A stretch of 64,000 nucleotides of DNA from an uncultured Planctomycetota bacterium. GTDB taxonomy: Bacteria; Planctomycetota; Planctomycetia; Gemmatales; Gemmataceae. The stretch's first letter is position 1. Each line of letters begins with the position of its first letter. The position numbers and the translations under genes were made by a program. Below are positions 1 to 11,808 of this stretch, piece after piece. The notes beneath the pieces were generated by a model. It saw nothing but the letters and a program-made list of their open reading frames with translations, had not been told where the DNA came from and made no database searches. The stretch is taken from assembly GCA_963849325.1 (NCBI GenBank), contig CAWKHF010000012.1:1408001-1472000 (forward strand), in the 5' to 3' direction.

Positions 1-1083
1 CTGGACGGCGCCCTTCTTGACGTGGAGCCGCTCAAGCTGGAAGCCAATGGGAAGTGGAGCAAGGTCATGGAGAAGACGTTGGCCGACGGCGGACGGCTGA
101 CCGGCCGACTCGACTACGCCGACGCGCTGGAGGCGGACAACCGGGCCGTCGCCCTCCTGCCGCGCCGCGAGTTCCAGCCGGTCACGCTCGTCAGTCCGGC
201 GGGCGATCTGTTCGTCGAGAAAGTGCTGGAGGCCAACCCGCTCGTCAAACTCCACGTGAGCCGCAAACCACTGGAGCGAACGCCGGTCGGCGCCGTCATG
301 GTCTACCATCGTCAGGTGCCCAACGTGCTGCCGTCCGGCCCGGTCCTGGTGATCGACCCGGACAACGACTGCGATTTGTGGCATGTCGGCGACAAGCTGC
401 AAAACCCGATTGTCACCAAACAGGACCGCGATTCACCTTTGATGGCCCACGTCCGCCTCGACAATGTGCTGATGCCCGAGGCGCGCAAGCTAACCTTCAC
501 GGAGGCAGCGGGCAAGCCGCAAGTCCTCGCCGCGGCCCTGACGGGTGAACCGCTTCTGGCCGCCCTGGAGCGGCCGGAGGGCAAGGTGGTGGTGCTGACG
601 GTCAATCTCGACAAGGGCGATCTGCCGCTACGAACGGCGTTCCCCATCTTCGTGACCAACGCCCTGACCTGGTTCGCCGGCGGCCGGGGCGAACTGCACG
701 AGGCGCTGGCGGCGGGAGCGGTCACGGAAGTCGCGCTGCCGGATCGGCCGGGGGAAGAGTACCTGCTGCGCGCCCCGGACGGCCGAATTCGCCGTCTGCC
801 GCCGGGAGTCAAACGGACGACGGTGGGACCATTGGACCAGTGCGGCGTGTGGGCCGTCGTGGCCAACACACCCGAGGCACCGCCGATCCAGGAGATCGCC
901 TGCAACCTAAGCAACCGCGACGAGAGCGACCTGCGGCCGCCGGACTCTCTTCCTTCCTGGGGAGACGAACCGGCCCGCGCCATGGGCTTCACCGGCCGGC
1001 CGATCTGGTTTTATCTGTTGGCTGCGGCCTGGCTGCTGGCAGGCGTCGAATGGTATCTCTATCAGCGGCGCTGGATCAGTTGA
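1..1083 (+). CDS. C-terminal part of a BatA/vWA-operon membrane protein (starts upstream of the window)
   Basis: Frame is open from the window edge. It has a 'DLPLRTAFPIFVTN' motif, an 'NLSNRDESDLRP' motif and a C-terminal TM helix ending 'EWYLYQRR', typical of BatA-like proteins. A vWA gene follows. Confidence 0.7.
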   Translation: MDGALLDVEPLKLEANGKWSKVMEKTLADGGRLTGRLDYADALEADNRAVALLPRREFQPVTLVSPAGDLFVEKVLEANPLVKLHVSRKPLERTPVGAVMVYHRQVPNVLPSGPVLVIDPDNDCDLWHVGDKLQNPIVTKQDRDSPLMAHVRLDNVLMPEARKLTFTEAAGKPQVLAAALTGEPLLAALERPEGKVVVLTVNLDKGDLPLRTAFPIFVTNALTWFAGGRGELHEALAAGAVTEVALPDRPGEEYLLRAPDGRIRRLPPGVKRTTVGPLDQCGVWAVVANTPEAPPIQEIACNLSNRDESDLRPPDSLPSWGDEPARAMGFTGRPIWFYLLAAAWLLAGVEWYLYQRRWIS

Positions 1084-1130
1084 TCGTCGAGGACGCGGAT
1101 ACGCCCGACACTGGTTGGAGACCGTGATCC

Positions 1131-3701
1131 ATGCCTTCGTGGTTCCCCTTCGAGCTGACGCATCCGTGGTTCCTGCTCGGCCTCTTGGTTGTGCCGGTCC
1201 TTGTGTGGTATTTCTACCGCAGCCTGGTCGATTTCAGCCGTTGGCAGCGGCTGCTGTCGCTGGCAGGTCGATCGCTCCTCGTGGTGCTGCTGGTGCTCAG
1301 CCTGTCCGGTCTGACCTTGCAGCGGCCGACGCGGCAACAGTTCGTCGTCTTCGCCGTGGACGAAAGCCTCAGCGTGGGCGATGACGAGCAGCAGCGGGTC
1401 CAGCAGTACCTCGACCGTGCCCTTCCCGCCGCCGGCGAACATCGCGTCGCCTTTCTGTCTTTCGCGGCCGTGCCGGGCCAGGTCCACGGCGAGCGCGGCC
1501 GCCCCTCCCAACTGGACCGCCAGGGCACCGACATCGCCTCGGCCCTGGAGGTGGCCGTGGCCGCCATCCCGCCCTCCTACGTGCCGCACGTCGTCCTTCT
1601 CAGCGACGGCAACCAGACCAAGGGCGATGCCTTGAAGGCGGCCCTGCGCGGCGGCGTGCCCATCTCGACCGTGCCGCTGTCTCCGCGCTCCGAGCCGGAA
1701 GTGCAGGTCTCCGCCGTGCAGGTGCCCGCCCAGGTGCGCGAGGGCGAGCCGTTCTACGTCGAGGTGGTCATTGACTCCAACCACGACGACGAGGGCGAGA
1801 TCGAGGTCTTCCGCGGCGCCCACAAAGTTGCCGGCGAGCAGAAGAAGATCAAAAAAGGAGAAAATCGCTTCCGCTTCCGTCAGACCCTCACCGGCGAACG
1901 TCTGGCCCAGTACACCGTGCGCATCAAGGGCTTCAGCGACCGCCTGCAAGACAACAACACGGCCTCCGGATTGGTGTTCAGCTCCGGCAAGCCGCGCGTC
2001 CTGCTGGTCGAGAGCGACCCCAAGCTCGGCAAGCACCTGGCCTGGGCCTTGGAGCAGGAAGGCATTCTCGTGGACATCCGCCCGCCGCGCGGCATGCCGG
2101 ACAGCCTGGCCGACCTGCAGAATTACGAACTGCTGCTCTTGTCGAACGTGCCGGCCACTGCCCTGAGCCAGCGGCAAATGGACGTGGTGCGCACCTATGT
2201 GCAGGATCTCGGCGGCGGACTCATCATGCTGGGCGGCGATCAGTCGTTCGGCCTGGGCGGTTACTACAAGACGGTCCTCGAAGAAATCCTGCCGGTGCGC
2301 AGCGACTTCGAGAAGGAGAAGGAGAAACCGAGCCTGGCGATGGTGCTGGTCATCGACAAGTCCGGCTCGATGGGCGGCGAGAAGATCGAGCTGGCCAAGA
2401 AGGCGGCTTCGGGGGCGGTGGAACTGCTTGGACCCAAGGACAAGATCGGCGTCATCGCCTTCGAGGGCGAAACCTACTGGGTCTGCGACGTGCAGCCGGC
2501 GTCCAACAAGGCCAGCGTCATCGACAAGATCAGCAGCATCGAGGCCGGCGGCGGCACGGTGATGGCCCCGGCGATGGAGGCCGCCCACGAGGCGCTCGTC
2601 AACACGACGGCCAAGCTCAAGCACGTCATCATCCTCACCGACGGCATTTCGGCGCCCGGCGACTTCGAGGGCGTAACCACGAACATGGCCCAGGCCAAGA
2701 TCACGGTGACGACCGTCGGCGTCGGCGAGGACGCCGACAAGAAGCTGCTGGAGGAGATCGCCCGCCTCGGCAACGGCCGTTACTACTTCACCGACGACCC
2801 CGCGTCGGTGCCGCAGATTTTCGCCAAGGAGACGGTGACGGCGAGCAAGTCGGCCCTCAACGAGCAGCCGTTCACGCCGCAGCTGTTGCGGCCAACGCCG
2901 GTGCTGTCCGGCATCGACCTGGCCAACGCCCCCTTCCTGCTCGGTTACGTGACCACTCGGCCCAAGCCGACCAGTGAACTGGTACTGGCAACGGAGAAAG
3001 GCGATCCGCTTCTGGCATGGTGGCGCTACGGCCTGGGCATGACGGTGGCATTCACTTCCGACGCCAAAAGTCGCTGGGCGGCGGAGTGGCTGAGCTGGCC
3101 CGGCTACAGCAAGTTCTGGGCGCAGGTGGTCCGGCACACCATGCGCAAAAGTGAGGCCAAGGGTGTCGTTGTGCAGGTCGAGCAGAAGGAGCGCAAGACG
3201 ACGGTGACGCTCGACGCCGTCAACGCGGCGGGCCGTTATCTGAACCAGGTCGAGACGGAGCTGACGGTCATCGATCCGCAGTTGAATACGCACAAGTTGG
3301 CGATGGTCCAGACCGCTCCGGGCCGTTACCTCGCCGTCTTCGAGACGCCGCACGTCGGCGCCTATCACCTGGAGATGTCGCAGAAGCAGAAAGGCCAAAT
3401 GTTGGCGCAGCAATCGCGCGGCCTGGTGGTCGGCTACGACGACGAGTTTCGTCTGCGGCCGACCAACGAGGAACTGCTGCAATCGCTGGCGCGCGTCTCG
3501 GGAGGAACGTATCGGCCGGAGCCGGAAGCGGTGTTCGACGATCTCGGCCGCACCGCGCCGCGGACGACGCCGTTGTGGCCGTACCTGGTCGCGGTGGCCG
3601 CGAGCCTCTTCCTGGCAGACGTGGCCCTGCGGCGGATTGATTTCGCGTTGTTATTCGGGTATCGAGTTGAGGAGCTGTCGAAAAACAAGTCTCTCGTTTA
3701 G
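1131..3701 (+). CDS. Membrane-anchored double vWA-domain protein with a central glutamine-amidotransferase-like domain
   Basis: N-terminal TM helices, two MIDAS motifs (DESLS, DKSGS), LSDG/LTDG motifs, a GGGLIMLGG segment and a C-terminal TM helix. Confidence 0.85.
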   Translation: MPSWFPFELTHPWFLLGLLVVPVLVWYFYRSLVDFSRWQRLLSLAGRSLLVVLLVLSLSGLTLQRPTRQQFVVFAVDESLSVGDDEQQRVQQYLDRALPAAGEHRVAFLSFAAVPGQVHGERGRPSQLDRQGTDIASALEVAVAAIPPSYVPHVVLLSDGNQTKGDALKAALRGGVPISTVPLSPRSEPEVQVSAVQVPAQVREGEPFYVEVVIDSNHDDEGEIEVFRGAHKVAGEQKKIKKGENRFRFRQTLTGERLAQYTVRIKGFSDRLQDNNTASGLVFSSGKPRVLLVESDPKLGKHLAWALEQEGILVDIRPPRGMPDSLADLQNYELLLLSNVPATALSQRQMDVVRTYVQDLGGGLIMLGGDQSFGLGGYYKTVLEEILPVRSDFEKEKEKPSLAMVLVIDKSGSMGGEKIELAKKAASGAVELLGPKDKIGVIAFEGETYWVCDVQPASNKASVIDKISSIEAGGGTVMAPAMEAAHEALVNTTAKLKHVIILTDGISAPGDFEGVTTNMAQAKITVTTVGVGEDADKKLLEEIARLGNGRYYFTDDPASVPQIFAKETVTASKSALNEQPFTPQLLRPTPVLSGIDLANAPFLLGYVTTRPKPTSELVLATEKGDPLLAWWRYGLGMTVAFTSDAKSRWAAEWLSWPGYSKFWAQVVRHTMRKSEAKGVVVQVEQKERKTTVTLDAVNAAGRYLNQVETELTVIDPQLNTHKLAMVQTAPGRYLAVFETPHVGAYHLEMSQKQKGQMLAQQSRGLVVGYDDEFRLRPTNEELLQSLARVSGGTYRPEPEAVFDDLGRTAPRTTPLWPYLVAVAASLFLADVALRRIDFALLFGYRVEELSKNKSLV

Positions 3702-3754
3702 CCGCGACGCGCAGCGGAGCGCGTTCCGCGCTCCGCTGCGCGTCGCGGCTAAAC
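3696..3754. repeat. Palindrome family A, copy 1 (28-bp arms GTTTAGCCGCGACGCGCAGCGGAGCGCG, loop TTC)
   Basis: Perfect inverted repeat. It contains the TAG stop of the upstream gene. Confidence 0.95.
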
Positions 3755-3790
3755 GAGAAGGTATTCTCCGACAGCAGAGGAGAGACTGTC

Positions 3791-5293
3791 ATGCACGAAT
3801 CGGTATATGGCGTGTTGGCGCCGGTGTCGCGCCGGCAGCAGGTGGGATTCGCCCTGCGTTTGATGGCCTACGGACTCCTCGCCGGCTCGCTGCTCGGCCT
3901 GGTCTTCGGGGTCATCAGCTGGATCCACGGCGGTCCCTTGTCGCTGGTGCGGACGGTATCCATCGTCGTTGCGGCCGGACCCGCGATCGCGCTTGTGACC
4001 GGCGCGATCGGTTTTCTCTGGCGCCGCAGTCTCCACGATGCCGCCGTCGCCGTGGATCGGCATTATCGGCTCAAGGATCGCTCGGCGACGGCGCTGGACT
4101 TTGCGGCCCGGCCGACGCCCAGCCCACTCCAGACGTTGCAGATCGCCGACGCCTTGCATCATCTGCAACTTGTCGATCCGCGACAGGTGGCGCCGCTGAA
4201 GCAGCCGCGCTCGTTGCCTTACGCCCTTGGCCTGTGGGTCTGTGCGGCGAGCCTGGCCGTGGCCCTGATTTTCTCTCCCTTCGGCCGTCCGAACGTGGAG
4301 GCCGGCCCCGTCCCGCCTCCGCCGCAGGTCGTCGCCGAGGCCGAGCGCCTTGGGCAATCGCTGCAAGACCTGGAGGAGATCGCTCGCCAAGAGGAGATCC
4401 AGGAACTGGCCACGCTGATCGAGCAGCAGCGCAAAAAGGTTGAGGAGATGAAGCAGTCGGGCATCGACAAGCGCGAGGCGTTGGCCAAGCTGTCGGAGAT
4501 GGAGGCGGCCATCCAGGCCCAGCAGGCCCAGTACAACACGGCCCTGGTGGACGGCCAGCTTCAATCGCTCGGCTCGGCCATGTGCGCTGCCGCCGCTCTC
4601 GAAGGAGCAGGTAAGGCGTTAGAGGAAAACAAACTCGATAAAGCTGCTCAAGAGATGGAAAAACTCGACGAACCGGAACTCGAACGCAAGGAGGTCAAGG
4701 TGGTCGAGCAAAAGCTGAAGCAGGTGGCCAAGGAAATGGGCGAGGCCGGGTTGGGACAGCTCAGCGGCGCCGTGGCCGACTTCGCCGAGAGCCTCAAGGG
4801 CGGTAAGGGCAAGGGCAAAAAGGCCACCCGGACGCTGGCCCGCGAGATCAAGAATCAGGCCCGACGCAAGCGCGTCGCCGAACTACTCAATGGCGTGCTG
4901 GATAATCTCAAGGAGGCCAAGTCCAACGTCCAGAACAACAGTCTCGTCAAGGGCAAGATGCCGTACAAATCGACCACTCCCACCTCGACCTTCGGGGCGG
5001 AGACGAGCGGCAACGTGCAGGGGGAGAAGACGAACCTGCTCGGCCAGAATAAGCAGGTGGACGTGACCGGCACGCCCGGCGAAGGTCCGTCGGACGTTGA
5101 GTCCACCACGTCGCCGGAAGCACGGCAGCAGGCGCGGCGCGGCTACAAGGATGTCTATAAAAAATATCGCAAAATGTCAGATGCCGTGCTCGACAGCGAG
5201 CCGATCCCGCTCGGCCATCGCCAGACCATTCGCCGTTACTTCGAACTGATCCGTCCGCAGAACGCCGACATGACCGACAAAAAGGGGAACTAG
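3791..5293 (+). CDS. Membrane-anchored coiled-coil protein of the vWA operon
   Basis: Three TM segments, a long Glu/Gln/Lys-rich coiled coil and a C-terminal 'EPIPLGHRQTIRRYF' motif common in MoxR/vWA operon proteins. Confidence 0.75.
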   Translation: MHESVYGVLAPVSRRQQVGFALRLMAYGLLAGSLLGLVFGVISWIHGGPLSLVRTVSIVVAAGPAIALVTGAIGFLWRRSLHDAAVAVDRHYRLKDRSATALDFAARPTPSPLQTLQIADALHHLQLVDPRQVAPLKQPRSLPYALGLWVCAASLAVALIFSPFGRPNVEAGPVPPPPQVVAEAERLGQSLQDLEEIARQEEIQELATLIEQQRKKVEEMKQSGIDKREALAKLSEMEAAIQAQQAQYNTALVDGQLQSLGSAMCAAAALEGAGKALEENKLDKAAQEMEKLDEPELERKEVKVVEQKLKQVAKEMGEAGLGQLSGAVADFAESLKGGKGKGKKATRTLAREIKNQARRKRVAELLNGVLDNLKEAKSNVQNNSLVKGKMPYKSTTPTSTFGAETSGNVQGEKTNLLGQNKQVDVTGTPGEGPSDVESTTSPEARQQARRGYKDVYKKYRKMSDAVLDSEPIPLGHRQTIRRYFELIRPQNADMTDKKGN

Positions 5294-5306
5294 TGGACAG
5301 AACCCC

Positions 5307-5383
5307 TCCGAGCCTGAAGCGTAAGCGAAGAGGAACGGCAACCTCCGGTTGCCGTTCCTCTTCGCTTACGCTTCAGGCTCGGA
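5307..5383. repeat. Long palindrome (37-bp arms, loop TCC), REP-like and possibly a bidirectional terminator
   Basis: TCCGAGCCTGAAGCGTAAGCGAAGAGGAACGGCAACC followed by its reverse complement, between convergent genes. Confidence 0.9.
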
Positions 5384-5400
5384 CAAACACATTCTCCGCA

Positions 5401-6381
5401 TCACCCTTTCACTTCCAGCACCTGAACCTTGCCGTGGCCGGCCACGAAAAGGGTGTCGGCGTTGTCGCCGAGCGCGAAGTCGTGGACGTGCATCGCCGCC
5501 TTTTCCTGGCGGACGGCCTTCTTCGCCTTCAGGTCGAAGAAGATGAAGAAGCCATCGTTGGCGCCGCCGCCGCCGAGCAGCCAATCGCCCTTGGGGTGAA
5601 ACGCCAGGTGCTCGACGAGACCCTTGAACTTGTCGTCGGCGTATTCGTGCGTCCGCTCGCCCTTGTGCCAGTCGAACACCTCAATGCGGGCCTTGCCGTC
5701 CAGGTGATCGATGTTGCCGATCTTGCCGATGCCGCCGGCGGCGAGGTGCTTGCCGTCCGGCGAGAAAGCCAGCGAACGAATGCCGCCGATGGAATGTTTG
5801 CGCTGCACCGGGTCCCAGGTGTACATGCCCGGCGCTTCCAGCGCCGCCACCTGTTTGCCGGTGGCCGTCTCCCAGACGACGATGTGGCCGACCTTATCGG
5901 CGGTGGCGAGATAACGCCCATCCGGCGAGAAGGTGCAGACGAACAGCATCGACGGAAAGTGATTGGGTGTCCGTTCCGCGTGGCCGCGCAACTCGCGGAG
6001 GGGCTTGCCGCTGACCGCGTCCCACAGGCGGCACACCATGTCGTCGGCCACGCTGGCGACGGTCTTGCCGTCCGGTGAGACGACGACTTTACGGACCCAC
6101 TTTGTATGTGCTTCGACCGTGCGGATGGGTTTGCGGGCATCGATGTCCCACCACATGAGCCGGCCGTCGTAGCCGCCGGAAACGGCGGTCTTGCCGGCCA
6201 GCGCTAGGCCACTGACGTAGCTCTGGTGTTCGCCCAACGGCTTCGGCTCCGGCTTGGCCTGCGACAGATCGAGGTCGTATACCTTGAAGTCGGAGCTGCC
6301 GAACAGCAAGCGGTCGCTGCCGGGAACGCGGGCCAGCGCGAAAACAGTGCCGCGACTGGAGATGTCCTTGAGGATCTTCAT
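5401..6381 (-). CDS. WD40-repeat protein
   Basis: Repeated motifs such as 'SGGYDGRLMWWD', 'SVADDMVCRLWD' and 'FSPDG'. A GAGGT RBS precedes the ATG at 6381. Confidence 0.85.
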   Translation of the reverse strand: MKILKDISSRGTVFALARVPGSDRLLFGSSDFKVYDLDLSQAKPEPKPLGEHQSYVSGLALAGKTAVSGGYDGRLMWWDIDARKPIRTVEAHTKWVRKVVVSPDGKTVASVADDMVCRLWDAVSGKPLRELRGHAERTPNHFPSMLFVCTFSPDGRYLATADKVGHIVVWETATGKQVAALEAPGMYTWDPVQRKHSIGGIRSLAFSPDGKHLAAGGIGKIGNIDHLDGKARIEVFDWHKGERTHEYADDKFKGLVEHLAFHPKGDWLLGGGGANDGFFIFFDLKAKKAVRQEKAAMHVHDFALGDNADTLFVAGHGKVQVLEVKG

Positions 6382-6410: not shown

Positions 6411-7724
6411 TTACGCCAGCACGGCCTTGATGGGCTTGGTGCCCGGCTCGGTCAGCGGCACCGGCCGCGAGCCGACGTAGTAGTTCTTCTGATGGTTGAT
6501 GCCCAGCGCCCGGTAGATGGTGGCGAACAACTCAGCGGCGCCGACCTCGCCCTCGGTGACGCGCTGGCCCTGCTCGTCGGTCTTGCCGTAGACGCTGCCG
6601 CCCTGGACGCCGGCGCCGGACAGCGTCGCGCTCCAGGCCGTGGCGAAATGGTCTCGGCCCAGGCTCGGGTTAATGCTCGGCGTTCGGCCGAACTCCGCCA
6701 ACGTCAGGACCAACGTGTTCTCCAGCAGGCCGCGCTCCTGCAAGTCATCCAGGAGGGCCGCCATGACGTGATCCAGCTCCGGCACCAGTTCCTGGTGCGT
6801 CTCGAAGTTCTGACCGTGGCTGTCCCACCAAGCCCGGCCAACGCGGACAAACGGCACGCCCGCCTCAATGAGTCGGCGGGCGACCAGTGCCTGCTCGCCG
6901 AACAGTGTCGGGCCGTAGCGGTCGCGCACCTTCGCCGACTCCTGCGACACGTCGAACAGTTTCTCGCTGGCCATCAGGCCATGCACGCGCTGGTACGCCT
7001 CGCCGTGGCTGCCGAGGCTGTGCGACGAGCGGCCGCGCTCGAATTGCTTGCTCAACACGTCGCGCAGCTGGGCACGCTGCCGGTGATCGACGTCGCTGAT
7101 GCCTTCGAGGCGGCGGATGTTCTCGGGGATCATGCTCGTGTACAGTTCCATCGAGGCGTAGCGCGAGCCGAGGAAGCCGGCCGAGCCGGGGGCCATATTG
7201 CGGCCCTCGGTGGCGAAGTAGAACGAGACGTAATCGGGCACCTGGCTGTCGGCGCAGCCCAGTTCGCGGGCCAGCACGGCGCCGAGGTCGGGATATTTCA
7301 GGTTCGGTTCGTCGCGCCGACCGCGCATCATGAGCTGAGCGCCGCTGCCGTGGTCGCCGATGCGCGTGTTCAGCGAGCGGATGATGCAGGTGTGCTTCAT
7401 CCGCTTGGCCATCTGCGGCATCAGCTCCGAGATGTGGATGCCGGGCACCGAGGTCGGGATGGCGCGGAACGGCCCTCCGGTCGGCGCTCCGGGCTTGGGG
7501 TCCCACGTTTCCAGTTGACTCGCACCGCCCGCCAGCCAGAGAAGAATGCAGCGCTTCTGCTGCTTCTTCAACTCGCCGGCCAGGGCTGGATGTTGCAGGA
7601 CGTTCAGCTGCGTCATGTCCGCCGCGAAGGCGGCGGCGCCGGCGGCCATCGTGCCGAGGAAGGCGCGGCGATCAACGGCGTGCAGCGGCGAGCCACAGAA
7701 ATTCGAGCGTCGGTTGAGGGCCAT
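6411..7724 (-). CDS. DUF1501 family protein
   Basis: Tat-like RRAFL, 'WLAGGASQLETWDPKP', 'WDSH', 'EFGRTP' and 'GRDH' motifs. Confidence 0.92.
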   Translation of the reverse strand: MALNRRSNFCGSPLHAVDRRAFLGTMAAGAAAFAADMTQLNVLQHPALAGELKKQQKRCILLWLAGGASQLETWDPKPGAPTGGPFRAIPTSVPGIHISELMPQMAKRMKHTCIIRSLNTRIGDHGSGAQLMMRGRRDEPNLKYPDLGAVLARELGCADSQVPDYVSFYFATEGRNMAPGSAGFLGSRYASMELYTSMIPENIRRLEGISDVDHRQRAQLRDVLSKQFERGRSSHSLGSHGEAYQRVHGLMASEKLFDVSQESAKVRDRYGPTLFGEQALVARRLIEAGVPFVRVGRAWWDSHGQNFETHQELVPELDHVMAALLDDLQERGLLENTLVLTLAEFGRTPSINPSLGRDHFATAWSATLSGAGVQGGSVYGKTDEQGQRVTEGEVGAAELFATIYRALGINHQKNYYVGSRPVPLTEPGTKPIKAVLA

Positions 7725-7767: not shown

Positions 7768-9387
7768 TCAGTAGTTGAACCGAAATTCCGCGCTGGTCAA
7801 CAGCGCCCACACGATTTGTCGCTGCGCCTCGCTCAGCCGGTCGCCGCGCTGGCGGAGGTAATCGCCCAGCAGCTTGCGCTCGTCCGCGCGTGGCGGACGG
7901 CACAGGGTCGTGGACACGGCCAAGTCAATCGCCTCGTCTGGGTTTTGGAGTTGTTTCATCCGGCCGAGTAGGCGGTCGCCGCCGTCGGCCAGCAGCTCCT
8001 TCTGGATGCGATCATTGTTGCTGAACAGCAGCGCCTCGCCGACGCCGACCTGGAAATCGTCGCCGGGCTGCTCGAACAGAGGGGCGATTCCGCCGGCACT
8101 GGACTCCAGTCCTTGCAGCCGTTTGTCGAACTCCTCGGGCTTGAGCGTCGCCGGCAGGGTCCGCGGGTCGGTGACGGCCAGGCGCAGCGACGTGGCAAGC
8201 TGCGTCGGCGTCAGCGGCCGGACGCGGGCCACGGCGAACAGCGCCGGCCGAGGAGCATCGCCCTTGTCCCACCGGCTGTCGCGCGCATAGGCGCGGCTGA
8301 GCACGAGGCCGCGGATCAGACGCCGCGGGTCGTAGCCGTGTTCGATGGTGTCGCGGGCCAGCCAGTCGAGCAGCTCGGGATGGCTCGGCGGGTTCTCCGA
8401 GTGCATCTGATCGAGCGGCATGACCAGCCCGTAGCCGAACAGCCGGTGCCAGACGCGGTTAACGAGGGAGCGAGCAAAGAAATCGCGCTGGCCCGGCTCC
8501 AGCGACAGGCGGACGAGCTGAGCGCGGGCGCTGAACTTCGGCGGTGGCGGCGGCGGCGTATTCGCATCCGCACTGTTCTTGCGTTTCTTTTTCGGCTTCG
8601 GCTCGCCGCCGGGCGGTTCCTTCAAGGTATCCGTCTCGATCGCCTTGCCGGTCAGGAACATCATGCGGGCCTGACGCTCGACGCCCTTGGTCGTCTTGAA
8701 CTTGACGATGCCGAACTCGCGCTCGGCCAGGTGTCCGCCGCTCTCGTAGGTACGGCTGAGGAACGATTTCATTCCGAAGAAATGGTCCTGTTTCCAGTCG
8801 TTGACCAGGGGATGATCGTGACAGCGGGCGCAGCTCATGTTGACGCCGAAGAACAGCGAGCTGACCTCCGCCGTCATCTTGTCGAGATCGCGGACGCGCT
8901 GGCGAAGAAATTCGCCGGCCGATTTCCCCTTGGCGTCGTTCTCGTCGGGCAGCATCAGATCGCGGTAGATGCGGTCCCACGGCCGCTTCTCCGCCAGGGC
9001 GGTCAGCAGGTAGTCGCGCACGCTGCCCTTGGTCCCATTCATAAGCATGACGTCGAACGCCGTGGCCTGGTGCCGCACGAAGGCGGGCGAGTCCATCAAG
9101 CGCTCGACCAACTCGACGCGCTTGTCGGGCTTCATCGAGGCGACGAACATCCGCGTCTCGTCCACGGTGGGGATGCGGCCGGCAAGGTCGAGCGTCAGCC
9201 GGCGGATGAAGGTGGCGTCATCGGTTGGGCCGGCCGGCGCGATGCCTTCTTCCTGGAGGCGGACGTCGAGGTAATGATCGACAACTTGCTCGACGGGCTG
9301 TCCGGGCGGCAGCAGGTCGTCGGCCGCGACGGGAGACGCCATCGGAATCAGGGCGAGAAGCGGGAGAATCAGACGGAGGGTCCGCAT
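7768..9387 (-). CDS. DUF1549/DUF1553 (planctomycete cytochrome-like) protein
   Basis: Signal peptide, 'FIRRLTLDLAGRIPT', CARCHDHP, 'VNRVW', 'NPPSHPELLDWLA' and C-terminal 'EFRFNY'. Confidence 0.9.
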   Translation of the reverse strand: MRTLRLILPLLALIPMASPVAADDLLPPGQPVEQVVDHYLDVRLQEEGIAPAGPTDDATFIRRLTLDLAGRIPTVDETRMFVASMKPDKRVELVERLMDSPAFVRHQATAFDVMLMNGTKGSVRDYLLTALAEKRPWDRIYRDLMLPDENDAKGKSAGEFLRQRVRDLDKMTAEVSSLFFGVNMSCARCHDHPLVNDWKQDHFFGMKSFLSRTYESGGHLAEREFGIVKFKTTKGVERQARMMFLTGKAIETDTLKEPPGGEPKPKKKRKNSADANTPPPPPPKFSARAQLVRLSLEPGQRDFFARSLVNRVWHRLFGYGLVMPLDQMHSENPPSHPELLDWLARDTIEHGYDPRRLIRGLVLSRAYARDSRWDKGDAPRPALFAVARVRPLTPTQLATSLRLAVTDPRTLPATLKPEEFDKRLQGLESSAGGIAPLFEQPGDDFQVGVGEALLFSNNDRIQKELLADGGDRLLGRMKQLQNPDEAIDLAVSTTLCRPPRADERKLLGDYLRQRGDRLSEAQRQIVWALLTSAEFRFNY

Positions 9388-9510
9388 CACGGGTTCCTTG
9401 CTTCTGGATCGTCGGTACTCAGGCCGGTCGCGCGGACGGCCGGCGTGAATCTCTCGGGGCGGGAGGGTGGTCCCTGGTAGGCCGAGAAGGCGGGTTCCCA
9501 AACTGTCCTT

Positions 9511-9539
9511 ATTGTGCGGCGCGGGCGGCCGACTTGCAA
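9511..9539 (-). promoter_or_regulatory. Putative sigma70 promoter of the DUF1549-DUF1501-WD40 operon
   Basis: Minus-strand TTGCAA-N17-CACAAT. Confidence 0.45.
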
Positions 9540-9563
9540 GTGTCTTCTGGCCGATTGTCCGCG

Positions 9564-10094
9564 ATGAGTGCCCTGGCCGACATCGACGATGTTTGTGTCC
9601 GCCGCCGCGTCGAGGCCGACCTGTCGCCCTTGGAGCCGCTGGACAGCACGATCCGCCGACTGGAGAAAGACATCGAGGTCGCCGCCCGCCCGCATTACTC
9701 GACTGAGATGGCCGTGCTGCAATCGACGCCCGGCGTCGGCATCGTCATCGCCCTGACCATCCTCCTGGAGATCGACACCCTGGAACGCTTCGACACACGC
9801 CAGCAGTTTTGCTCCTATGCTCGGCTTTGCGGCGCACGCCAAGAGTCGGGCGGCAAGACGGTCGGCAGCGGCAACGCCAAGCAGGGCAATGCCTGGCTAA
9901 AATGGGCCTTCTCCGAGGCCGCCGTACTCAGCGCCCAGAAGAATGAGCGGATCGCCAAGTATCTCGACAAGCTGTCGGGTCGTCTGGGCAAAGCCAAAGC
10001 CTTGTCGGCCTTGGCCCACAAGCTCGGACGCGCCTTCTACCACATGCTCCACAAAAAAGAGGTATTTAATATCGACAAATTCCTGAGACACTGA
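9564..10094 (+). pseudogene. IS110-family transposase/recombinase, C-terminal half only
   Basis: 'LQSTPGVGIVIALTILLEIDTLERF...FCSYARL...ESGGK...GNAWLKWAFSEAA...ALAHKLGRAFYHML' is the IS110 C-terminal (Transposase_20) domain. No N-terminal DEDD/RuvC-like domain is present upstream. Confidence 0.88.
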
Positions 10095-10740
10095 GCCACG
10101 GGGCGGCCGGCGAGCCGAAGCCGAACGGGAGCCGCTACGGGCCAACCCGCACGACGACCCTAACCAGCAAGGGAGCATCGACTCCGCCATTGGGGTCCGG
10201 GACCGCCCAGGCATCCTGCCGCCTTGATGGGACGCCGGCCGCCGCCGTAAATTTCGACCGCGGTGGTATCAAAAATAGGCCGCGATCCGCCGGTGGGTCG
10301 GGGGACAAAACGGGATCAGCGTAACGCTGTCCCCATGAAAAAGGGCTTGGCCAGTGACCATCCCACGTCCTGCCGACCCCCGCCGGATCGCGGCCACCAC
10401 GAACAAAGGAGCCTTCGCCCGGACGATCCGCCCCAGACGCCAGCCGAACCTAACGGGACACTCCCTTCGGGGAGTGAGCCAGTCGCTTTTTGAATGGCGG
10501 CGACGCTGGGAACGCATGAGTATCGGGACCGACCAGGGCTAGTTCCCTGGCACAGCCGCCTGGTCCTTCGGGTCTGGGCCGCCGGAGTCCGCATGACGGT
10601 TGGGTGCGGTTCGCCGCACCAGCCGTTGATAAGCAAGCCGGATCGCCGAGGAGGATTGCTCGCCGCCGCAGCTACACTCGTTCGGAAATCCGGCAAGAAA
10701 ACTGCCGTGGATAGCCGTTCCCGTGGAAAATATTTTCTAT
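10095..10740 (+). ncRNA. Candidate IS110-associated structured guide (bridge/seek-type) RNA region
   Basis: No convincing ORF. Stems at 10278-10395, 10459-10476 (cUUCGg loop), 10533-10550 and 10603-10620 (UUCG loop). Duplicated motif AGCCGAA(G)CC(G/T)AACGGGA. Confidence 0.5.
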
Positions 10741-10818
10741 TGACACCAAGAGCCTTATGACGGTTAGGGCGGCCGGGCAGGTGCCAGTCTATCCCATTCC
10801 GATTAGCGGAGATCGGGC

Positions 10819-10846
10819 TTGACGGCAACTAGCGGCCTGATATACT
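10819..10846 (+). promoter_or_regulatory. Putative sigma70 promoter
   Basis: TTGACG-N16-TATACT with an extended -10 TG, ~55 bp upstream of the ATG at 10902. Confidence 0.5.
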
Positions 10847-10901
10847 CAATTGACAGGAGTAATCATAATAAAAGAGCAACCACGATTTTGAGGATTTAGC
10901 C

Positions 10902-11510
10902 ATGAGTCAAGCGAATCTGAATCGCCTCCGGGATGATCTTGAGATAATGAAGCAAGCGGCCGGTGTGGACCTGCCGTTCGGACGCGAAGATGTCCGTGCC
11001 TCTCTCTGGTGCGCGCTCTGCGGCGTATTGGTTTCTACCTGGGCCTTGCTGGGGCCTTGGGAGTACCGGTGGATAGTGGCTATTCCCCTGACGCTCGCCG
11101 TCCTCGGCGGGGTCCAGGCATACCGACGAGCACACCGCGAGCGCGGAGGGGAGCCAGTCCGCTGGCGCGAGCATCGGCTTTCGGGAACTGCTGCACTGGT
11201 CGCAGTGCCGCTCGCGATTGCCTACATGCAATGGGAGCGACAAGTCGGCGTGCCGCGGCAGTTTGTCGGGGTGGCCTCGGTGTTCTTTGTGGGCGTGGGC
11301 CTCCTCATCTTCGCGGTACTGGATCGGCGTCGGCGTCCCTATGCGGGAGGAGCAATCCCCTTAATGGCATTTGCCGTCGCTATCCCGCTCTGCTCCCCGA
11401 CTCAAGTGGTGTTCGCGGCCGGGCTATGCTGGACGGTTGGTGGAAGTGCAACCGCGGGGCTACAGTCTTGGCAACTACGCAGAGGCTCAAACAATCATGA
11501 CGCCAATTGA
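10902..11510 (+). CDS. Hypothetical multi-pass membrane protein
   Basis: About six hydrophobic segments and a GAGGA RBS. It overlaps the next gene. Confidence 0.7.
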   Translation: MSQANLNRLRDDLEIMKQAAGVDLPFGREDVRASLWCALCGVLVSTWALLGPWEYRWIVAIPLTLAVLGGVQAYRRAHRERGGEPVRWREHRLSGTAALVAVPLAIAYMQWERQVGVPRQFVGVASVFFVGVGLLIFAVLDRRRRPYAGGAIPLMAFAVAIPLCSPTQVVFAAGLCWTVGGSATAGLQSWQLRRGSNNHDAN

Positions 11511-11808
11511 TTTCAACGGCTTGGACACGGCCGTTCACGGACCGGTTCGGTTGGGCATCCTAACCGCCTTGCACTTGGACGGTTCCCTCGACTTCACGAC
11601 GCTTAAGAAACGACTCAACGTCGCGGACGGGGCATTGGGATTGCATTTGGCCAAACTTGAGGAGATCGGTTACGTCATCTGTAGCAAGGCTTTCGTCGGG
11701 CGCCGTCCGCGGAGCACATATCGCCTTACCCCGCGTGGACGAAAGGCCTTCGCGGCTTACCTAGACGCCATGCAGCGACTGATTGACGCGGTGAATCGAC
11801 AGCCCTAA
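11497..11808 (+). CDS. Small winged-helix transcriptional regulator (HTH_34/ArsR-like)
   Basis: 'LDTAVHGPVRLGILTAL...DFTTLK...DGALGLHLAKLEEIGYV...KAFVGRRPRSTYRLTPRGRKAF'. Confidence 0.88.
   Translation: MTPIDFNGLDTAVHGPVRLGILTALHLDGSLDFTTLKKRLNVADGALGLHLAKLEEIGYVICSKAFVGRRPRSTYRLTPRGRKAFAAYLDAMQRLIDAVNRQP

Follow-up and report, generated by a model that had tools for sequence, protein, structure and literature searches.

The 64,000-nt stretch of DNA analysed here, called the window in the following, lies on contig CAWKHF010000012.1 (assembly GCA_963849325.1) of an uncultured planctomycete of the family Gemmataceae and contains a 5'-truncated fragment of an IS110-family insertion sequence (IS) with IS1111-type organisation. 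With a probability of about 0.7, the 669 nt that directly follow the stop codon of its transposase gene on the plus strand (10095..10763) are the right non-coding end of this element and the template of a predicted large guide RNA of the bridge/seek type, as an earlier note on this DNA had proposed. This reading is carried by a secondary structure that is conserved among related elements and by two predicted unpaired segments that match the element ends on opposite strands and change with them from copy to copy. That IS1111-type elements carry a guide RNA in their 3' non-coding end is established (PMC11187229, PMC11208160), and the seekRNAs described in the cited portions of the literature measure 82–96 nt in their short and 151–172 nt in their long forms (PMC13604230, PMC11187229). 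The RNA predicted here would be an enlarged variant of these, three to four times the studied sizes, as the earlier note had surmised for the region; what is new about it is its size, a duplicated target-type module and an extra hairpin domain.

For the comparisons we used two sets of related elements. Seven close loci (L001–L007), all in metagenome-assembled genomes (MAGs) of Gemmataceae or Planctomycetaceae, came from one scan of genome contigs, and nine distant loci (L008–L016) came from a plasmid collection searched with tblastn (165 records, best 42–47% identity). The distant set comprises Alteromonadales and Vibrio (L008, L009, L011–L014), a plasmid of a Nitrospirota MAG (L010) and two Betaproteobacteria (L015 and L016, 32–35% identity); named IS1111-group elements were absent from the 165 records. 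Downstream of the homologous transposase genes, the sequence is kept up to the end of the element in six Gemmataceae and Planctomycetaceae copies. In blastn comparisons it extends to window position 10768 in L001 and L002 (87%) and in L003 (70%) and to 10759 in L005 (72%), while in L006 the match runs to 10613 and resumes at 10715–10759, and the contig of L004 runs out at window position ~10486. For L007, whose transposase is 64% identical, blastn reaches the first ~60 nt only and MAFFT aligns the whole length.

An intact element measures ~1.83 kb and consists of ~85 nt upstream of the transposase gene, the 1050-nt gene itself and a non-coding end of 664–742 nt, which is the IS1111-type layout; the intact copies therefore do not end shortly after the stop codon. 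In L006 the non-coding end reaches 913 nt owing to a ~220-nt inserted element in its tail (L006:4691-4911), which resembles a miniature inverted-repeat transposable element with terminal inverted repeats of ~28 bp (…CAGTTGGTGGAGCAAATGTACAGTA / TACTGTACAAAGATTCCACCAAC…). The gammaproteobacterial relatives have shorter non-coding ends of ~450–560 nt. Intact copies, which the earlier note suggested looking for, are missing from the window: neither blastn nor tblastn nor a covariance model of module M2 (see below) located a second copy in the 64 kb, all other matches of the model having E > 0.1. The same model found no solo RNA module in the window and the loci compared.

For the whole region, RNAalifold predicted 153 base pairs from seven sequences, 26 of them compensatory. 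The compensatory pairs number 18 of 47 in Domain I (10098–10248, eight sequences), 10 of 41 in Domain II (10278–10395, eight sequences) and 15 of 59 in the core (10424–10645, seven sequences). Controls, 500 shuffles as well as slid alignments, were applied to Domain I and the core, and both exceed them by far: the shuffled means were 9.2 and 7.6, none of the 500 shuffles reached 18 or 15, respectively, and the slid controls gave 1–5 and 0–4. The long non-coding end thus has a conserved secondary structure, and every stem named in the earlier note falls within it. None of the three findings by which that note would have been refuted, namely missing conservation, missing covariation and intact copies with an early end, was made. 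The repeated motif pairs, the two UUCG hairpins (10459–10476 and 10603–10620) and the stem at 10533–10550, formed by 10533–10538 and 10545–10550, can be read directly in the sequence, and the long stem noted between 10278 and 10395 is present, its fuller extent being 19 nt per arm.

The core, a bridge-RNA-like unit on the plus strand (10424..10645), is closed by a helix of 10424–10430 with 10639–10645 and holds module M2, a donor multiloop and hairpins. Within it, 31 G-U cells stand against 5 A-C cells, which indicates the plus strand. Folding energy is uninformative in this respect, since the z-score of the minimum free energy (−3.7 against 20 shuffles) is equal on the minus strand. The window copy keeps 40 of the 47 consensus pairs of Domain I and 56 of the 59 of the core, which compares with 41 and 58 in L001 and 42 and 56 in L002. 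In L007, the most diverged Gemmataceae copy, extra inserts lie in the Domain I cap and between Domains I and II (L007:3020-3063 and 2910-2935); caps and linkers accept additional sequence, and the closing helices co-vary.

The boundaries of the element and its GG core are fixed by empty sites, six in L003 and one in L007, each of which has GG once. Junction alignments read target…GG/ATACT-CATGAAGGCTCT on the left and AGAGCCTTATG-AC-GG/TTCGGC… on the right, the slash marking the boundary. In the window, the right subterminal inverted repeat AGAGCCTTATG lies at 10749-10759 (+) and is followed by the extension AC and the core GG at 10762-10763 (whole part 10749..10763); the copy ends at 10763 and the flank, TTAGGG, begins at 10764. 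The left and right subterminal inverted repeats, CATGAAGGCTCT and AGAGCCTTATG, agree at 11 of 12 positions with one indel and are kept in L001–L007. The terminal extensions are GGATACT on the left (7 nt with the core) and AC + GG on the right, that is 7+2 or 6+3 depending on the assignment of GG; the gammaproteobacterial relatives have TGATACT on the left and the core alone on the right, and the core is TG in the distant relatives. Subterminal repeats, of ~11–13 bp in the IS1111 group, short asymmetric extensions and insertion into repetitive extragenic palindromic (REP) sequences without target duplication agree with the published descriptions of that group, which give the extensions as 7 or 6 bp on the left and 3 bp on the right (PMC11187229, PMC11208160).

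As its target, the element uses the right arm of a REP-like palindrome (GCCGAAC…GTTCGGC), which ends in …CTGCAGCG(GA/AT)T-GG-TTCGGC. In L003, six unoccupied ~90-nt palindromes of this kind (GCCGAAC…GCCCCGG…CTGCAGCGGATGGTTCGGC) lie within 7 kb of one MAG contig, at 1374-1392, 2181-2199, 5282-5300, 5774-5792, 6146-6164 and 6876-6894, and represent the element's target. No such palindromic repeat is recognisable in the 64-kb window, where the left flank of the element is lost, and short and composite target patterns are not clearly enriched in it: TGGTTCGGC with one mismatch occurs 40 times (25.5 expected), and the other three patterns are at chance. In some relatives tandem duplications affect the extreme right end, over 9 nt in L005 (~4728-4748), ~22 nt in L012 (~3043-3088) and possibly in L016 (~2940-2975); these duplications may be footprints of aberrant recombination.

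Two unpaired segments in the multiloop of the core match the element ends. The 5' segment, T3 (CATGAGTATC, 10515..10524 on the plus strand), is over all ten positions the reverse complement of GATACTCATG, the left end of L001 and L002, which form clade 1 with the window copy; the window's own left end is deleted. Contiguous matches between T3 and left end measure 9 nt in L003 and L006, 7 nt in L001 and 5 nt in L002 and L005. In L007, the left end GATGCTGTT and the RNA segment AACCGCAUC agree at eight of nine positions, three positions having changed on both sides.

The 3' segment, B3 (ATGACGG + TT, 10593..10601 on the plus strand), repeats the final heptamer of the right end, in which the core is included, and the two flank bases after it, so that a direct repeat links it with 10757-10768; it is a putative donor guide with a possible handshake dinucleotide. 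We compared B3 with the right end in the 12 loci where both could be read, the site lying just 5' of a hairpin. The RNA heptamer and the right end are AUGACGG and ATGACGG in the window and L001, AUGACUG and ATGACGG in L002, AUGCGUG and ATGCGGG in L003 and L006, AUACGUG and ATACGGG in L007, AUAAGUG and ATAAGTG in L010, and AUAUGUG and ATATGTG in L008, L009, L011, L012 and L014. Among these five right-end types, the three variable heptamer positions (3–5) are the same in RNA and right end at all 12 loci. The heptamer is followed by UU in 11 of 12 (UC in L003) and TT follows the right end in 10 of 12, the exceptions being L006 and L012; in the latter the inner duplicated end was read, and the outer copy has TT. 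L005, which has a duplicated right end, also reads AUGCGUG + UU, and the betaproteobacterial L015 has CUGAUGGGUGUC against a right end of CTAATGGGTG/TC.

T3 thus appears complementary to the top strand of the left end and B3 to the bottom strand at the right, the two bases after B3 matching the right target; both change together with their ends, the donor complementarity by which bridge/seek RNAs are recognised. A donor-binding module made of T3 and B3 is, as a prediction, well supported, and we infer that the two segments form a donor-binding loop. The earlier note had read the duplicated motifs of the region as two protein-binding loops of the guide RNA; they do not mark one target and one donor loop, since both resemble target loops and the donor segments lie elsewhere (10515-10524 and 10593-10601), at sites that had been listed merely as neighbours of hairpins. 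A further candidate donor match, GGAGCCTTCG near 10409, was dropped, as it is not conserved in the second close clade.

The duplicated motifs belong to two modules that resemble target loops. Module M1, equivalent to Domain I (10098..10248, plus strand), has a closing helix of 10098-10116 with 10229-10248, which encloses a target-loop-like strand pair and a large variable cap. Module M2 (10431..10512, plus strand) measures 82 nt, with a stem of 10432-10445 and 10496-10510 and a cap formed by the UUCG hairpin 10459-10476. The motif pair reads AGCCGAAGCCGAACGGGA (10113-10130) and CCTTGATGG (10222-10230) in M1 and AGCCGAACCTAACGGGA (10442-10458) and TTTTGAATGG (10488-10497) in M2. Both are built alike, from a closing helix, a 5' strand with the ending …CCNAAC-GGGA (T), a cap and a 3' strand …GAGCC/CAGCC…UUGA(N)UGG (B). 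The motifs of both strands recur twice in the gammaproteobacterial relatives and in L010, so that the two-module layout is found in Gammaproteobacteria and Nitrospirota as well, and in L008 the 3' strands of M1 and M2 share an identical 11-nt run, CAGCCACUACG. A clear first module also follows the stop codon in the betaproteobacterial L015. The covariance model built for M2 (R1) scored 98.8 bits on the M2 of the window and gave weak matches at the expected place in five of seven distant loci (19.1 to 12.3 bits, E 0.04–1.8). Since it did not detect M1, the paralogy of the two modules rests on motifs read by eye.

In M1, the strand T1 (GCCGAAC, then GGGA; 10120..10126, plus strand) is the reverse complement of the core G and the right target TTCGGC, and B1 (CGCCTTGATGGG, 10220..10231, plus strand) has the sense of the left target, core and first left-end bases of relatives. 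M2 contains the unpaired strands T2 (ACCTAAC, 10448-10454, plus strand) and B2 (TGAATGG, 10491-10497, plus strand). Thirteen loci have a known right flank, with which we compared T1 and T2. The matches out of 7 (T1/T2) were 7/6 in L001 and L002, 7/3 in L007, 6/6 in L003, L005, L008 and L011, 6/4 in L010, 5/6 in the window and L014, 5/5 in L012, 4/6 in L009 and 3/3 in L006, which amounts to 6–7 of 7 in eight loci for T1 and in nine for T2. More informative are the loci in which one module fits better than the other. The T2 of the window (CCUAAC) fits its own flank GTTAGG and its T1 the consensus GTTCGG, the T2 of L009 (AUAAC) fits the unusual flank GTTAT, and in L007 T1 fits the flank and T2 does not. 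On the other strand, the B1 segment of L007 (CGGCGGGAUG) equals its own left junction over 10 nt (two overlapping 7-mers), and the B2 of L006 (CGACUGG) equals its own left flank. The first module of L015 contains CGUUGAC, the reverse complement of G/TCAACG, and GAUUGAA, which corresponds to the left flank GAT, the core TG and AA of the left end; for T1 of L016, we found no match to its own ends. A clade-2 tail segment that matches the right target (GAAACGCCGAA, 11 nt in L003) was set aside, as it is the 3' strand of a covarying hairpin.

The comparison of copies shows two target-loop-like modules to be present, at the level of motifs and predicted folding; their match to the REP-like target is suggestive, and one or both may bind target DNA. 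The two loops could carry different guides, as the T1 of the window reads GTTCGGC and its T2 GTTAGGT, and the copy sits at GTTAGGG. If two guides are real, one element could address two target variants; alternatively, a loop with self-pairing strands could serve as a built-in target mimic that gates recombination. We consider it possible, though at clearly less than even odds, that these elements of Planctomycetota, Nitrospirota and Gammaproteobacteria share a three-module guide RNA with two paralogous target-binding loops and one donor multiloop.

The right end also supplies a conserved −35 box for a predicted circle-junction promoter, in line with published accounts that the circle junction forms a promoter in both IS groups (PMC11187229, PMC11208160). 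The TTGACA that the earlier note had placed at 10741 is there, shifted by one base (10740..10745, plus strand); TTGAC is kept in all 12 loci with a located right end, and across the circle junction the box stands 17 nt from GATACT, which is made up of the core G and the left end (18 nt in the gammaproteobacterial relatives and L010). Directly upstream of it lies a perfect 12-nt AT-rich palindrome, GAAAATATTTTC (10726..10737), near-identical in the Gemmataceae copies, which may be a regulator site or an UP-like element. No sigma-70-like promoter was predicted on the plus strand upstream of or inside the region, the sole prediction (10819-10846) lying outside the element and facing the next gene (ORF at 10902). 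This lack of a predicted promoter agrees with the published view of an RNA derived from junction or transposase transcripts. A 16-nt word ending in (T/C)(T/C)GACA occurs three times, at the end of the transposase gene (10062-10077), at the right end (10730-10745) and in the host promoter region (10840-10855), where it overlaps the predicted promoter 10819-10846.

From these features, we propose that in intact copies the non-coding end would be transcribed with or behind the transposase gene, the likeliest promoter being that of the excised circle, which joins the −35 box of the right end to GATACT of the left end. Folding would turn this transcript into a large bridge/seek guide RNA, in which T3 and B3 would form the donor-binding loop and M2, its paralogue M1 or both the target-binding loop(s) for the REP-like palindrome. 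The complement of the top strand would then lie 5' of that of the bottom strand, as in IS1111 seekRNAs (PMC11187229, PMC11208160).

The window copy itself is a dead remnant. Its transposase gene is reduced to the open reading frame (ORF) 9564..10094 (+), which ends with the stop codon at 10094 and encodes the C-terminal half of an IS110-family transposase in 176 codons, all of them open, equivalent to residues ~174–349 of 349. Only the Tnp domain is left, in agreement with the truncation that the earlier note had recognised. The sole Pfam match is Transposase_20 (PF02371, 1.5e-18), and PF01548 is not among its matches. The NCBIfam model NF033542 ("IS110 family RNA-guided transposase") scores 106.8 bits over profile positions 184–342, below its cut-off of 140, which the full-length homologue P0005 passes with 179.8 bits. 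A protein search for longer relatives gave 790 matches at E ≤ 0.001 among 2569 candidates; among the 120 homologues listed, most have 349 residues with PF01548 and PF02371, two have PF02371 only, and many sit on contigs of just 1.2–3 kb. Since the remnant aligns to residues ~174–349 of the 349-residue homologues, and since DNA homology with intact copies begins at ~9567 and the sequence further upstream is unrelated, ~1.1 kb of the 5' part is missing, including the left end, the 5' untranslated region and the RuvC-like domain, and the ATG at 9564 is fortuitous. The full length of 349 residues falls within the 330–350 described for IS1111 transposases, which carry a C-terminal motif GL-P----S(t)G (PMC11187229, PMC11208160). 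The corresponding stretch of the Tnp domain, read by eye from the alignment, is ARLCGAxQES(A/G)G and unlike the published motif; the assignment to the IS1111 type follows from the organisation of the element, not from a tree of the protein with named IS1111 members.

Without a left end, a RuvC-like domain or a predicted promoter, the RNA gene in the window is probably a recent relic and not a working part. Its helices have decayed no further than those of full copies, which a recent truncation explains as well as selection does, and this intactness is therefore no evidence for selection or for action in trans. The suggestion of the earlier note that the RNA might act in trans thus finds no support in a copy that also lacks the junction promoter and has no predicted plus-strand promoter; action in trans would further call for an intact copy elsewhere in the genome, and the window has none.

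Several observations weigh against the guide-RNA reading or parts of it. The sample for the fold and guide tests consisted of eight close sequences in three clades and nine distant loci. In the core, the number of further pair types is not above that of shuffles, 93 of 500 reaching the observed number. The G-U and A-C cells are balanced in Domain I (13 and 14) and Domain II (10 and 10), so that the strand is not fixed there. Rfam covariance models gave no relevant match in 9000–11500 at E up to 10, the sole match being a chance hit of a long non-coding RNA in the transposase remnant (E = 3.9). In the gammaproteobacterial relatives, T3 is not recognisable by eye and was not matched to the ends. 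For the target modules, three of the seven T matches are nearly automatic, since AAC is in the search pattern and every flank except that of L006 begins with GTT, and matches of the T pattern outside the modules score 2–6 of 7; the flank matches of T1 and T2 therefore lend modest support only. The B1 and B2 strands of clade 1 fit the left flanks of L001 and L002 poorly, and both modules are mismatched at the fourth T position in clade 2 and L010. Further, the predicted fold pairs T1 with B1, one of these pairs (30/163) covarying, so that M1 could form a closed helix instead of an open guide loop. Covariation between guides and targets is weak, since all close copies use nearly one target.

Some of these points bear on how much of the region is guide RNA. 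It is unlikely, in our estimate, that the region is composite, with only the ~220-nt core (10424-10645) acting as guide and Domain I, Domain II or both being passenger or accessory RNAs of a regulatory, stabilising or selfish nature. Such an arrangement would agree with the 82–172 nt that suffice for the studied IS1111 RNAs (PMC11187229; PMC13604230), with ISPpu9, which is described as carrying an independently mobile small RNA module, Ssr9, downstream of its transposase gene (PMC12288879), and with the gammaproteobacterial relatives, which manage with ~450–560 nt and show no equivalent of Domain II by eye; the unfixed strand of Domains I and II and the possibility that T1 and B1 form a plain helix also point this way. 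However, M1 stands at the same place, in the same order and with the same motifs right after the stop codon in relatives from two other phyla at 42–47% protein identity, and a first module is present in L015 even at 32%. M1 and M2 share motifs on both strands, including the 11-nt run CAGCCACUACG common to both in L008, and the first module provides the best insertion-site match in L015 and L007. A predicted long-range helix encloses Domain II and the core in one fold; its 5' strand (10260..10267, plus strand) pairs with 10662-10669 (RNAalifold columns 193–200 with 629–636), the pairs being kept with one-sided changes only, which supports it weakly. Finally, repeats of the element ends by which a sub-module could be mobilised were not seen inside the element.

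That the structure acts as DNA instead, as protein-binding or cruciform sites of the element end or as REP-like sequence captured from former targets, is very improbable. Both strands fold equally well (z = −3.7 each), Domains I and II have no G-U excess, a REP-like palindrome is the target, and the region repeatedly contains words like GCCGAAC; these points speak for a DNA-level structure. Against it stand the G-U excess of the core and helices that are kept through changes from G-C to A-U and to G-U; the unpaired guides and the two ends correspond on opposite strands, as has been described for bridge RNA (PMC11208160), and blastn reported no similarity of the region to the REP-like repeats. 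The probability of a decayed or unrecognised protein-coding gene is close to nil. The region is GC-rich and has ORFs of at least 60 aa in every frame, with long ones on both strands (10316-10828 minus, 170 aa; 10494-10760 plus, 88 aa), but the positions and frames of the ORFs differ from copy to copy, the two longest have no Pfam match, indels of 1, 2, 4 and 8 nt separate the copies, and substitutions are paired across helices and not distributed by codon position. The absence of a credible ORF from these ~660 nt, on which the earlier note had built, is thereby borne out.

Taken as a guide RNA, the region can be placed beside three known systems, each as described in the cited portions of its reports. 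The IS1111 seekRNA elements (ISEc11, ISPa11, ISKpn4, ISPst6; Siddiquee et al. 2024, PMC11187229) likewise have a long non-coding region behind a DEDD transposase of ~330–350 aa, subterminal inverted repeats with short asymmetric extensions, site- and orientation-specific insertion into repeats such as REP without target duplication, a junction promoter in the circle and a top-strand complement 5' of the bottom-strand complement, and M2, with 82 nt, has the size of a short seekRNA. In contrast to the region described here, the non-coding end of ISEc11 (1443 bp) measures ~270 nt and not 669 nt, the seekRNAs are described with one target module instead of two paralogous target-loop-like ones, the 118-nt hairpin domain and the structured tail are extra here, and the Tnp motif differs from GL-P----S(t)G (PMC11187229).

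The bridge RNA of IS621, of the IS110 group (Durrant et al. 2024, PMC11208160), resembles the predicted RNA in combining separate donor and target parts, each of which reads both strands around a 2-nt core, and in a promoter rebuilt across the junction of right and left end. The handshake guides described for IS621 (Hiraizumi et al. 2026, PMC13626964) are resembled by a left-side guide with two partner-matching bases (B3 + UU here; B1 + AU in relatives). Yet IS621 encodes its RNA at the left and not the right end, the order of the strand matches is reversed here, the donor guides of IS621 lie in a simple internal loop and not in a multiloop, its core is CT (PMC11208160) and not GG (TG in the distant relatives), the structured region is far larger here, and no Rfam or other model links the two. 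A multiloop position of the donor-binding bases is nevertheless described for many IS1111 orthologues (PMC11208160). ISPpu9 with Ssr9 (PMC12288879) is also an IS110-family element that sits in REP sequences and has an additional RNA gene behind that of the transposase; but Ssr9 is described as dispensable, bounded by its own recombination boxes and also present alone in the genome, whereas no solo copy was found here in the sequences compared and the extra domains lie between stop codon and guide core, inside one predicted fold. In the literature we found no description of bridge RNAs with several target loops or of planctomycete bridge RNAs, although published listings of predicted ISfinder RNAs may already include this subfamily.

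No natural guides other than bridge/seek RNAs are known to specify both partners of a DNA recombination; those studied so far are all compact, with one target loop and one donor loop. They are under development as genome-editing tools. From a natural family in which the target module is duplicated and domains are added, one could learn how the scaffold copes with enlargement and, if both target loops work, how one recombinase–RNA particle could be given two addresses or a self-inhibiting switch. For annotation, the ~0.7 kb behind these transposase genes are not "intergenic" but part of the element, and matches between guides and ends allow element ends and core to be called from sequence alone.

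The remaining parts of the non-coding end are hairpins of the core, Domain II and the tail. Just 3' of B3, the UUCG-capped hairpin 10603..10620 (+) has eight pairs with one-sided changes only and is ~23 nt longer in clade 2. Domain II (10278..10395, plus strand), with arms 10278-10296 and 10377-10395 that are 89% complementary, forms a long branched hairpin of 118 nt; inspection by eye revealed no counterpart in the gammaproteobacterial relatives with their shorter non-coding ends. The tail contains a small, covarying hairpin CGGCA…TGCCG (10691..10707, plus strand), for which clade 2 has GGCGT…ACGCC at the equivalent place, as read from the alignment. Domain II and the tail are probably a lineage-specific scaffold.

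In the marine gammaproteobacterial plasmids, the related elements adjoin other IS copies: L009 has two IS110-family genes in tandem (1068-3544), L008 a second IS110-family gene 1.5 kb away (2474-3520 and 5085-6011), and in L013 the non-coding end is interrupted by an IS3-family element (2776-3956). In the window, a minus-strand ORF upstream of the element (7768-9501) carries the domains DUF1549 (PSCyt2) and DUF1553 (PSD1), which are typical of Planctomycetota. Downstream, a probable membrane protein of 202 aa and an overlapping winged-helix (HTH_34) regulator of 145 aa occupy 10902-11808.

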